Source: an uncultured Chlamydiales bacterium
Lineage (GTDB): Bacteria > Chlamydiota > Chlamydiia > Chlamydiales > JAAKFR01
Assembly: GCA_963748195.1 (NCBI GenBank)
Contig: CAVVHU010000001.1
Span: 52,698 to 116,697, forward strand
DNA length: 64,000 bases
Reading direction: 5' to 3'
Of this stretch, positions 6,816 to 14,576 are shown piece after piece; positions within the stretch are counted from its first letter, which is position 1; every line of letters begins with the position of its first letter. The position numbers were made by a program, and so were the translations under genes. A model generated the notes under the pieces. The model did not search any database. It saw only the letters and a program-made list of their open reading frames with translations, and was not told the DNA's origin.

Positions 6816-8645
6816 TTAGGCATAAACAAATGCCCCTCCTACGACACCTATTGCAGGCACGAGCCAGGAGATCGTATTACTTTCAGCAGAAGAGGATACG
6901 ACAACGCCCCCTGTATTAGAAGCTGACTGTGATATTGTTGTACTTGAAGAGCTTATAGTTGTTCCAGCAAAAGTTGTAGGGCTCGCTGTACTAGAAGATA
7001 ACCGTGATGTTGTTGTAGTCGAAGAACTTATAGTTGTTCCAGACAAGGTCGTAGTGCTCACTGAACTAGAAGCTAACTGTGATGTTGTTGTACTTGAAGA
7101 ACTCATAGTTGTTCCAGACAAGGTCGTAGTGCTCACTGTTGTGCCTACAGATCCACTGCTTGTGGACGTTCCTTTGGCTATGAGCCCTGTTGTTAGAGGA
7201 AAGGCAGCAGTGCTACTTGAAGGTACAGCATTCGGATTGAATATTTGCCCAAAGACTCCAGAATTGTTTCCATCATGACCGCTGGCGTCCCGCCAAGCGA
7301 TCACAAAATCGCCATTGCTTAAAGCGGATGCCGAAGGTTGATACTGCATCCCGGGCGTGTATGTATTGACTTGAAATTCGCTGCCGACTTTACCTCCCGT
7401 CGCATTGAATATTTGACTAAAGACTCCATAACTGTTTCCATCTTCGCCACTTCCATCATACCAAGCAATAACAAAATTGCCATTGCTTAAAGTGGACACT
7501 GAAGGGCCTCCCTGCATTCCTGTCGTGTATGTATTGACTTGAAATTCACTGCCGACTTTACCTCCCGTCGCATTGAATATTTGTGCGAAGACTCCATAAC
7601 TGTTTCCATCTTCGCCACTTTCATCCTCCCAACCGATCACAAAATGGCCATTTCTTAAAGAGGAGGCTGAAGGGTACATCTGACCTCCAAGAGTGTGTGT
7701 ATTGACAAGAAATTGATTGCCGATTTTACCTCCCGTCGCATTGAATACTTGCGCAAAGATTCCATAACTGTTTCCGTCTAGACCGCCGTCGTCTATCCAA
7801 GCGATCACAAAATCGCCATTGCTTAAAGAGGATACAGAAGGAGATACTTGGCTCCCTATCGTGTATGTATTGACTTGAAATTCACTACCTGCTTTCGCTC
7901 CCGTTGCACTGAATCTTTGACCAAAGACTCCATAGCCGAATCCATCTTCACCATAGGTGTCTGTCCAAGCGACTACAAAATCTCCATTGATCAAAGAGGA
8001 GACGGAAGGGCCTCCCTGTCCTCCAATTGTAAATGTATTGACTTGAAATTCACCCCCGACTTTAGCTCCCGTTGCATTGAATATTTGCGCAAAGACTCCA
8101 GCGCCATTTCCATCCAGGCCGTTATCGTCCTCCCAAGCAATCACAAAACCTCCGTTGCTTAAACTGGACACCGACGGGTTTGCCTGAATCCCTGTCGTAT
8201 ATGTATTGACTAGAAATTCACCACTGACTTTAGCTCCCGTTGCATTGAATATTTGTCCAAAGACTCCATAACTGCTTCCATCTTCGCCGCTATCGTCCAC
8301 CCAAGCAACCACAAAACCGCCATTGCTTAAAGAGGAGGCTGAAGGATTAAATTGATTTCCAATCGTGTATGTATTGACCTGGAATTCTCCCCCAACCTTC
8401 TGTTGTGCAAGTGCTCGTGGAAAACACGCGCTTAAGCCCGCAAATAATGGAAACGGATGTTTTGTGGCTAGGGAACCTGCTATCCCACTCATGAGGGCAG
8501 GGATACAAGAGTTATGCATGACATTATGCCAAACGCGACCAATTTTCTCATCTTTAGGAGAACTTATTTCAAATTTTTGTGAACAGAGAAGTGGAATGGG
8601 AGTTGAAAAAGCGACAGCTCCTTCATAAAATTGTGCGGCAGACAT
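6816..8645 (-). CDS. paralog A of repeat-ectodomain membrane protein family: ~85-aa conserved N-terminus, ~8 x 57-aa repeats, Ser/Thr-rich stalk, C-terminal TM, no cytoplasmic domain
   Basis: Tandem repeats GEFQVNTYTxGxQxxPSVSSLSNGxFVxAWxDDxGxDGxxxGVFGQIFNATGxKVG. Ser/Thr-rich low-complexity stalk, then WLVPAIGVVGGAFVYA and the stop. Conserved N-terminus shared with the two downstream paralogs. Confidence 0.75.
   Translation of the reverse strand: MSAAQFYEGAVAFSTPIPLLCSQKFEISSPKDEKIGRVWHNVMHNSCIPALMSGIAGSLATKHPFPLFAGLSACFPRALAQQKVGGEFQVNTYTIGNQFNPSASSLSNGGFVVAWVDDSGEDGSSYGVFGQIFNATGAKVSGEFLVNTYTTGIQANPSVSSLSNGGFVIAWEDDNGLDGNGAGVFAQIFNATGAKVGGEFQVNTFTIGGQGGPSVSSLINGDFVVAWTDTYGEDGFGYGVFGQRFSATGAKAGSEFQVNTYTIGSQVSPSVSSLSNGDFVIAWIDDGGLDGNSYGIFAQVFNATGGKIGNQFLVNTHTLGGQMYPSASSLRNGHFVIGWEDESGEDGNSYGVFAQIFNATGGKVGSEFQVNTYTTGMQGGPSVSTLSNGNFVIAWYDGSGEDGNSYGVFSQIFNATGGKVGSEFQVNTYTPGMQYQPSASALSNGDFVIAWRDASGHDGNNSGVFGQIFNPNAVPSSSTAAFPLTTGLIAKGTSTSSGSVGTTVSTTTLSGTTMSSSSTTTSQLASSSVSTTTLSGTTISSSTTTTSRLSSSTASPTTFAGTTISSSSTTISQSASNTGGVVVSSSAESNTISWLVPAIGVVGGAFVYA
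7100..8400. repeat. in-frame ~171-bp tandem repeats encoding the 57-aa blades of paralog A (approximate bounds)
   Basis: Visible periodicity in DNA and protein. Confidence 0.5.

Positions 8646-14576: not shown

Follow-up and report, generated by a model that had tools for sequence, protein, structure and literature searches.

The 64,000-nucleotide (nt) stretch of DNA analysed here, hereafter the window, comes from an uncultured Chlamydiales bacterium (assembly GCA_963748195.1, contig CAVVHU010000001.1, positions 52,698 to 116,697), and its list of open reading frames (ORFs) contains three consecutive minus-strand paralogs, here called A, B and C, as a sequence-only reading of this DNA had claimed. 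All three encode a leader, a predicted seven-bladed beta-propeller, a Ser/Thr-rich stalk and a hydrophobic transmembrane (TM) helix; the presence of the stalk and the helix in every paralog agrees with the same reading. C continues into a Hanks Ser/Thr kinase domain with intact catalytic motifs and a tail of short motifs, B into a tail without a kinase, and A ends within the TM helix. The features of the array are:

6816-8645, minus: paralog A, 609 amino acids (aa); leader, seven blades, long stalk, TM helix cut to 16 aa, stop
7221-8405, minus: A propeller, seven blades; segment used for the structure model
6867-7220, minus: A Ser/Thr stalk; contains a 25-aa (75-nt) tandem repeat, 3.1 copies, at 6911-7139 (Tandem Repeats Finder)
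9100-11181, minus: paralog B, 693 aa; leader, seven blades, stalk, TM helix, 100-aa tail without kinase
9766-10950, minus: B propeller, seven blades (Tandem Repeats Finder, motif count)
9103-9405, minus: B tail, predicted cytoplasmic, five [EQ][AQ]KYG[DS][VI]A units; 36-nt repeat x 4.1 at 9119-9265 (Tandem Repeats Finder)
11667-14576, minus: paralog C, 969 aa; leader, seven-blade propeller, stalk, TM helix, kinase, motif tail; intact gene
14346-14576, minus: C leader, aa 1-77; charge-poor N-terminal stretch, then hydrophobic segment SCIPAL..TKHPFPFF..GLSACFPRALA↓Q (alignments; arrow, putative cleavage site)
13152-14345, minus: C propeller, seven 56-aa blades (Tandem Repeats Finder, motif count, AlphaFold2)
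13020-13151, minus: C Ser/Thr-rich stalk (sequence; predicted local distance difference test score, pLDDT, <50 in AlphaFold2)
12945-13019, minus: C TM helix IFWLWPLIGAVSGVTCLAATGFALL, then KLRAKNRH (hydropathy peak; positive cluster on the C-terminal side)
11835-12944, minus: C juxtamembrane region, structured pre-kinase extension (aa 576-607) and Hanks Ser/Thr kinase domain (Pkinase match, PKC alignment, AlphaFold2, invariant columns)
11670-11834, minus: C tail with short motifs ENYPDVFY, NYSKTP and SYFKTP (ORF, motif count)

The five KYGD-type repeats that had been noticed in B are present as five KYG[DS][VI]A units encoded by the 36-nt repeat. The early stop of A is also real, although it does not fall right after the TM helix as had been thought: the final residues WLVPAIGVVGGAFVYA are followed by a stop 16 residues into the helix.

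Propeller, leader and kinase

The repeats of the ectodomain had been described as seven or eight units of 57 aa. The repeats themselves are found, but their period is 168 nt (56 aa), with 6.9 copies per gene and scores of 1041-1442 in Tandem Repeats Finder, and the motif count gives exactly seven blades per gene, with a 3-aa insertion in blade 6 of C. The AlphaFold2 model of A aa 80-490 is confidently all-beta (pLDDT 87.1, predicted template modelling score 0.89) and shows seven blades of four strands each, while Foldseek returns only generic propellers, the nearest folds including CylK, Vgb lyase, the CV39L and PLL lectins and sialidases. The repeat region is thus modelled as a seven-bladed beta-propeller, within the seven to eight blades that had been expected. 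Pfam, NCBIfam and Protein Data Bank (PDB) sequence searches of the A-C ectodomain gave no match reaching threshold, a repeat-domain profile run against PDB sequences found nothing, and none of FG-GAP, WD40, NHL, Kelch, PQQ, BNR/Asp-box, LVIVD and PD40 reached its curated cut-off (e.g., 17.8 bits against 20.9 for PD40).

More than 7,900 proteins nevertheless match the repeat at E<=1e-3, in Planctomycetes, Alpha- and Gammaproteobacteria, Myxococcota, Bacteroidota and others, where it is usually joined to the export-associated RTX repeats, dockerin, cadherin-like or T9SS sorting domains. It is therefore a very widespread propeller repeat without a family model in the libraries searched. The Pfam label PF26862 is precomputed on the non-chlamydial homologues P0010, P0018, P0031, P0046 and P0047, where it may stand for a recent model of the repeat or of a neighbouring domain. 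The sequence-only reading had set against itself the case of a well-characterised repeat within an already described system. The repeat has indeed proved common, whereas literature searches on repeat sequence strings and on chlamydial propeller kinases returned neither a description of the family nor a system with the same arrangement. The same reading's view that the receptor-like family cannot be assigned to any named one is borne out by the Pfam, NCBIfam, PADLOC and PDB sequence searches, none of which supplies a name.

All 21 blades are nearly equally alike (77% nt identity, 70-72% aa identity, 68-69% identity at third codon positions) regardless of gene or blade number. The best partners are often two blades apart within one gene (B4-B6, 89%; C3-C5, 88%), and the blades of A, B and C show no positional orthology. 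Because of this equal similarity and the lack of positional orthology, the pattern points to homogenisation of the blades by concerted evolution and not to diversification. All paralog pairs have a nominal dN/dS of 0.34-0.36 over the propeller, with no sign of domain-wide diversifying selection, so that the description of the family as diversifying is not upheld. Variation is concentrated at a few loop positions, namely after TYT, within GxQ, QxxP, Wx and SGx, and after DG(N/S) (DGNxx).

The shared N-terminal leader is about 77-80 aa long, somewhat shorter than the ~85 aa first given for it, and that of A is 70-74% identical in protein sequence to those of B and C. Besides the C-proximal TM helix of each protein, the leader holds a second, weaker hydrophobic segment, which is bipartite (14-16 aa, TKHP, 14-16 aa); the AlphaFold2 model of C gives the leader two short helices, at 45-58 and at 62-69. 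The putative cleavage site at the end of this segment fits the -3/-1 rule of signal peptidase in 26 of 26 family members, with A/V/S/T at -3, A/G/S at -1 and Q at +1. GLSAC was also considered as a lipobox, a reading ruled out by the E, Q, R or T that many members have at -1. When the leader profile was searched against 1.84 billion representative proteins, 33 were matched, and its scan of genome contigs recovered a single distant locus, L001 (Chlamydiae SZUA-160). At L001 9812-11280, leader and seven-blade propeller lie in different frames, either as a frameshifted gene or by assembly error, and the propeller ORF (385 aa) is without stalk, TM helix or tail.

Most of the more distant, long-form relatives carry 100-220 aa, including a further conserved domain, ahead of the conserved leader hydrophobic segment (SC..GL.GG..GSL.TK.P.P...GLS.C.P...A↓QQKVG), which argues for a two-segment layout as in classical bacterial sensors and against the single-pass topology first proposed. 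The family layout predicted from these sequences is an N-terminal domain, a first hydrophobic segment, the propeller, the stalk, the TM helix and then a tail or a kinase. Stalk length varies from ~40 to >200 aa across members and is set by tandem repeats, such as three units of 25 aa in A and, in P0164 (aa ~480-660), over ten of 16 aa.

The Pkinase model PF00069 matches C at aa 623-885 (E 2.4e-35). Its catalytic motifs are complete (GEGNFG, VKK with the VAIK-type Lys, the alpha-C Glu, HLDIKLSN, DFG, SPE, DAW and the subdomain XI Arg), align with those of PKC and are invariant or near-invariant across ten clade members (alignment A6). The predicted product is a bona fide Hanks kinase, and the complete eukaryotic-type kinase first reported in C is thereby confirmed at the level of its motifs. 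The catalytic loop YHLDIKLSN is of the Ser/Thr type and non-RD; HLD recurs in nearly all listed clade members, and P0136 has HRD. The PK_Tyr_Ser-Thr model scores below Pkinase on C. In the full-length AlphaFold2 model, the propeller and aa 573-935 are mostly above a pLDDT of 90, including a beta/alpha extension (576-607) before the N-lobe.

With the cytoplasmic part of C as query, a small clade of about 26 proteins is recovered at E<=1e-28, for which the only named sources are Chlamydiae metagenome-assembled genomes; the clade thus appears to be almost confined to uncultured Chlamydiae. Beyond it, scores fall to plant CIPKs (E 4e-13, 27% identity) and bacterial PASTA kinases, and the nearest solved kinases are of AGC/CAMK type (PKC, CIPK23 and MARK, E ~1e-16). 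Horizontal transfer from a host is unsupported, as GC content is unremarkable and the identity of the kinase to any eukaryotic one is only ~27%. A reading as an anti-phage defence system was set aside, because PADLOC gives C only generic kinase-domain matches (mad6, PD-T4-6) and A and B none.

Tyr-centred tail motifs are common to members with and without a kinase. The motifs counted, Y[GAP][DSTN][VI][AFYT] and Y.[KRNLH][TR]P, have 52 occurrences in family tails that total 3,614 aa, against 0.3 in shuffled tails and 3 in the remaining 13,293 aa, an enrichment that is partly circular because the motifs were defined after inspection of the sequences. Given a kinase of Ser/Thr type, Y-x-K-T-P offers in its Thr a plausible candidate phosphoacceptor.

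Kinase remnants and the history of the array

Sequences related to the kinase or its tail are also found outside the three genes:

6672-6807, minus: kinase N-lobe remnant directly downstream of the stop of A, with stops and a frameshift (tblastn E 4.5e-11 vs P0015, small search space)
8755-8912, minus: kinase C-terminus remnant between B and A, from subdomain XI to a YG..YG.V tail (E 5.9e-8 vs P0164), inside the spurious ORF 8737-9075
11552-11650, minus: kinase tail remnant HHEENYGDVYERVNGPVYGTVA, ending in a stop, directly after the stop of C and upstream of B
14748-14964, minus: kinase C-terminus remnant upstream of C, WDQTYFQAKFDAI ... VELSEQIKRLHHEENYGDVY (E 1.6e-4 vs P0164)

The first of them encodes KITREDA..FPEGKYKTEVLIG and GSGNFGKLRFARNFKAKEFVSLKK in shifted frames, which correspond to the pre-kinase extension, glycine loop and VAIK strand. 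Tail remnants (HHEENYGDVY...) are found both after the stop of C and upstream of C, and the 3' part of the last remnant listed is 93% identical to the one at 11552-11650. The ORF 8737-9075 (minus, 112 aa) is the reading frame of the C-terminal remnant and is spurious as a gene; the plus-strand ORFs 7848-8162, 9425-9892, 10910-11212 and 14305-14661 (100-155 aa) are antisense shadows of the repeat genes.

Kinase remnants flank A, B and C, and the array therefore traces back to the duplication of whole propeller-kinase genes, with unequal crossing-over and partial deletion afterwards. The differing tails of the three paralogs, which had been attributed to shuffling confined to the intracellular module, reflect mostly the deletion of an ancestral kinase and not the swapping of modules. 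The B-type tail is real nonetheless: it recurs in P0006, which belongs to a different genome, and related kinase-less motif tails occur in the distant members P0013, P0022, P0168, P0172, P0179 and P0182.

The leaders of B and C are 97.6% identical in nt sequence (dS 0.05), against a dS of ~0.56 in the propeller, and about 170 nt upstream of the two start codons also align, within a B-C alignment that is 83% identical overall. Given this difference in dS, the nearly identical 5' end shared by B and C (10930-11353 and 14325-14748), including the presumed promoter, looks like a recent gene-conversion tract. A promoter and terminator scan found sites no more frequently than in shuffled sequence.

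Exchanged ectodomains in the wider family

A metagenome scan with a kinase-only alignment (A6) recovered twelve family loci. The kinase clade is found behind three unrelated propellers, built of the 56-aa repeat, FG-GAP or LVIVD, often in adjacent paralogs, and the pre-kinase extension and motif-bearing tail accompany the kinase behind the FG-GAP and LVIVD propellers as well. The fusion of the 56-aa repeat to the kinase recurs in L005, L007, L009, L016 and, by exact-protein look-up, L003, with a split gene pair in L010; paralogs are adjacent in L003, L011 and L016. Three FG-GAP genes and two kinase modules lie side by side in L002, and the LVIVD propeller precedes the clade kinase in P0145 and in two tandem genes of L008. 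Since one kinase clade stands behind three unrelated propellers, the ectodomain is, judged from these architectures, exchanged at the family level at least as much as the cytoplasmic part, which runs counter to the idea that shuffling spares it. The clade kinase is also fused to NACHT, NB-ARC and WD40 plus ankyrin modules.

Two of these loci have further features. In L008 (1-8055), where each tandem gene encodes an LVIVD propeller and a family kinase, a He_PIG Ig-domain match is found in the second gene only, and L015 (1739-7978) encodes a 2,080-aa protein in which the family kinase is followed by pentapeptide, WD40 and ankyrin repeats.

The array itself lies between housekeeping genes, with yggS downstream and genes for the flotillin FloA, an NfeD-like protein and a ClpP/SppA-like membrane protein directly upstream (15467-18512, minus). 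Besides YggS and FloA, the window encodes GlgP, a TamB-like protein and a chlamydial-type long YidC (NCBIfam PRK01001, 1040 bits), which is 74% identical to its best named relatives ("MAG: Chlamydiales bacterium") and 53% to that of Protochlamydia. A second, unrelated kinase gene (44392-46806, minus, 804 aa) combines an N-terminal Hanks kinase with a C-terminal formylglycine-generating-enzyme/EgtB-like domain and is Pkn1-like; such an architecture has been reported as conserved in and specific to Chlamydiae (PMC1262709). These genes mark the source as an uncultured member of the Chlamydiota. The window has no match in Rfam.

Interpretation and comparison with known systems

We tentatively propose, as the best reading of the locus, a decaying tandem array of Chlamydiae-restricted envelope receptor Hanks Ser/Thr kinases with a domain order opposite to that of PknB and PknD, although we hold it as possible and not yet as probable. 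The leader hydrophobic segment would carry the chain across the bacterial inner membrane and would then either be kept as a first TM segment or be cleaved at the conserved A-x-A↓Q site. A rigid CylK-like seven-bladed propeller on a flexible Ser/Thr stalk of variable length would bind a ligand in the periplasm or envelope, while the second TM helix, with its positive cluster inside, would lead to the pre-kinase extension, an active non-RD kinase and the Tyr/Thr-Pro motif tail in the bacterial cytoplasm. Ligand binding may alter the association of receptors, upon which the kinase would phosphorylate itself, the motif tails or other targets. B, a sensor with a motif tail and no kinase, could serve as a co-receptor, substrate or decoy of C, and A, which has lost tail and kinase and has a shortened anchor, could be a decoy ectodomain or an incipient pseudogene.

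We place the receptors in the inner membrane because of the signal-peptidase-like site, the positive cluster on the inner side of the TM helix, the exported homologues of the propeller and the precedent of PknD. A coupling of sensor, TM helix and kinase would agree with the architecture and with the positive cluster after the helix, the topology being predicted from sequence.

Several observations weigh against this proposal, among them the partial circularity of the motif count given above. The members are all from genomes of uncultured organisms. The leader segment has only weak hydrophobicity (Kyte-Doolittle 19-residue mean <=1.3 in A and B) and is conserved far beyond ordinary signal peptides, which suggests a more specific role. 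For a chlamydial periplasm, a Ser/Thr stalk of 40-130 aa, or of >200 aa as in P0164, seems long, and the NACHT, NB-ARC, WD40 and ankyrin fusions indicate that the kinase clade is not dedicated to envelope sensing. The Ser/Thr/Pro-rich, charge-poor N-termini, the resemblance of the Tyr tail motifs to eukaryotic docking sites and the eukaryotic identity of the best non-chlamydial kinase matches (PKC, CIPK, MARK) would fit a host-directed protein equally well.

Such a protein could be a translocated, Tir/Inc-like receptor, exported (e.g., by type III secretion) into the inclusion membrane or the host plasma membrane, its N- and C-terminus both lying in the host cytosol, an alternative that we regard as unlikely. 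It is doubtful, too, that the propeller faces the inclusion lumen or the bacterium while the kinase and the Tyr/Thr-Pro motifs have host signalling proteins as their targets or are phosphorylated by them. The restriction of the family to obligate intracellular Chlamydiae, its expansion in tandem arrays with fast turnover and its mucin-like stalks are consistent with translocation, as are the charge-poor, Ser/Thr/Pro-rich N-termini, the two hydrophobic segments that flank the ectodomain, the motif-bearing C-terminal tail, the position of eukaryotic AGC/CAMK kinases as nearest outside the clade and the sister fusions with ankyrin and WD40 repeats. The motif EAKYGDVADIDP presumably resembles the Tir Y474 region EHIYDEVAADP, and we take Y-x-x-P to be like Crk/Abl-type sites; both serve as leads only. 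A conserved signal-peptidase-type site after the first hydrophobic segment is, however, expected of a Sec substrate, a 400-aa propeller would have to cross the type III needle unfolded, the leader lobes of 14-16 aa are shorter than the ~20-aa lobes of Inc proteins, and with a Ser/Thr-type catalytic loop the Tyr motifs are not obvious targets of the kinase. In its fullest and quite improbable version, these would be host-membrane receptor kinases whose Ca-stabilised propeller faces the bacterium or inclusion lumen and whose non-RD kinase and Tyr/Thr-Pro docking motifs rewire the phospho-signalling of a (protist) host; by analogy, the Tir-like principle would thereby be widened to a modular family with exchangeable propellers, which seems to us equally hard to credit.

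There is little chance, in our view, that the proteins are instead propeller-centred surface or periplasmic binding proteins (lectins, adhesins or enzymes) with the kinase as a readily lost accessory. This would account for the common propeller-only and kinase-less copies, the former exemplified by the 385-aa protein of L001 and P0070, and would accord with the enzymes and lectins among the nearest folds and with the thousands of kinase-less homologues in other phyla. No catalytic signature was found in the propeller proteins, however, and the TM helix, juxtamembrane region, kinase and tail are kept as a unit behind three propellers, which argues that it is signalling that has been conserved. 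The catalytic site of CylK, moreover, requires an N-terminal beta-roll (PMC8916777), which is absent from A, B and C.

A mostly dead array, in which only C or none of the genes works and unequal crossing-over has left A and B behind as pseudogene-like copies, is similarly improbable. The four kinase remnants with stops and frameshifts, the truncated TM helix of A and the many fragmentary or split relatives (P0122, P0129, P0131, L010 and, with a frame change, L001) speak for it; against it stand the long open frames of A and B, a dN/dS of ~0.35, and the recurrence of B-type and other kinase-less motif tails in other members.

Among known systems, CylK/BrtB is the nearest solved structure to the propeller, but its C-terminal beta-propeller (PDB 7RON) is a structural match of that domain only, with 14% identity. 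In CylK, which has blade-bridging Ca2+ sites, an N-terminal Ca-binding beta-roll sits on the seven-bladed propeller and the active site residues Arg105 and Tyr473 lie at the interface (PMC8916777). A, B and C have no RTX/beta-roll match in Pfam, and because the beta-roll that supplies half of the active site is absent, a CylK-type enzyme identity is excluded. With Tir, Inc and Tarp proteins the family would share two hydrophobic segments flanking a presumed far-side domain, repeated Tyr motifs in the tail and a charge-poor N-terminus, a tentative likeness of motifs. It differs from them in its 400-aa propeller in place of a short loop, its short lobes and its conserved signal-peptidase-like site; where Inc proteins have a bilobed hydrophobic domain of ~40-60 aa near the N-terminus, the leader of the array is bipartite and weakly hydrophobic.

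The likeness to eukaryotic receptor kinases that the sequence-only reading had remarked on is evident in the order of ectodomain, stalk, TM helix, kinase and tail, the reverse of PknB and PknD. The two have in common a leader, an ectodomain of repeats, a stalk, one TM helix, a juxtamembrane region, the kinase and a Tyr-motif tail at the C-terminus, and tandem paralog arrays that include kinase-less members are also known from plant RLK/Pelle kinases, TGF-beta receptors and receptor tyrosine kinases. A non-RD catalytic loop occurs in many plant pattern-recognition receptor kinases as well. The kinase of C is nevertheless without specific affinity to the RLK/Pelle or tyrosine-kinase groups, AGC/CAMK kinases being nearest and its Lys being of the Ser/Thr type. 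Unlike eukaryotic receptor kinases, moreover, a sizeable N-terminal domain precedes the first hydrophobic segment in the long-form relatives, and the genomic context (YggS, FloA, YidC and the Pkn1-like kinase in the window) is bacterial.

Bacterial receptor kinases normally have the kinase first and the sensor last. Among them, PknD of Mycobacterium tuberculosis is a receptor Ser/Thr kinase whose sensor is a highly symmetric beta-propeller, and the array resembles it in joining a Hanks Ser/Thr kinase via one TM helix to a highly symmetric, presumably extracytoplasmic propeller, with the same presumed logic of sensing outside and phosphorylating inside. Whereas PknB and PknD begin with the kinase and end with the sensor, C runs from leader through propeller, stalk and TM helix to kinase, and the NCBIfam PknB_PASTA model gives it 71 bits against a cut-off of 450. 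The propeller of PknD has six NHL blades and that of the array seven blades of the unnamed 56-aa repeat. The Ser/Thr stalk, the non-RD loop and the short-motif tail are further features that set the array family apart from PknD, and its kinases form a separate clade that is ~27% identical to the nearest outsiders.

In a 2005 survey, no transmembrane Ser/Thr kinases were found in the (pathogenic) Chlamydiae analysed (PMC1262709). While receptor-type bacterial Ser/Thr kinases are known as a kind, what is new here is an unnamed family of them with reversed domain order: an uncultured chlamydial lineage possesses a whole family in the eukaryote-like order, with exchangeable propellers, variable stalks, conserved tail motifs and visible gene birth and loss. 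If envelope or host-derived ligands are sensed, these proteins would be the first candidate surface signalling receptors of such obligate intracellular bacteria; delivery to host membranes would instead make them a new class of effectors.

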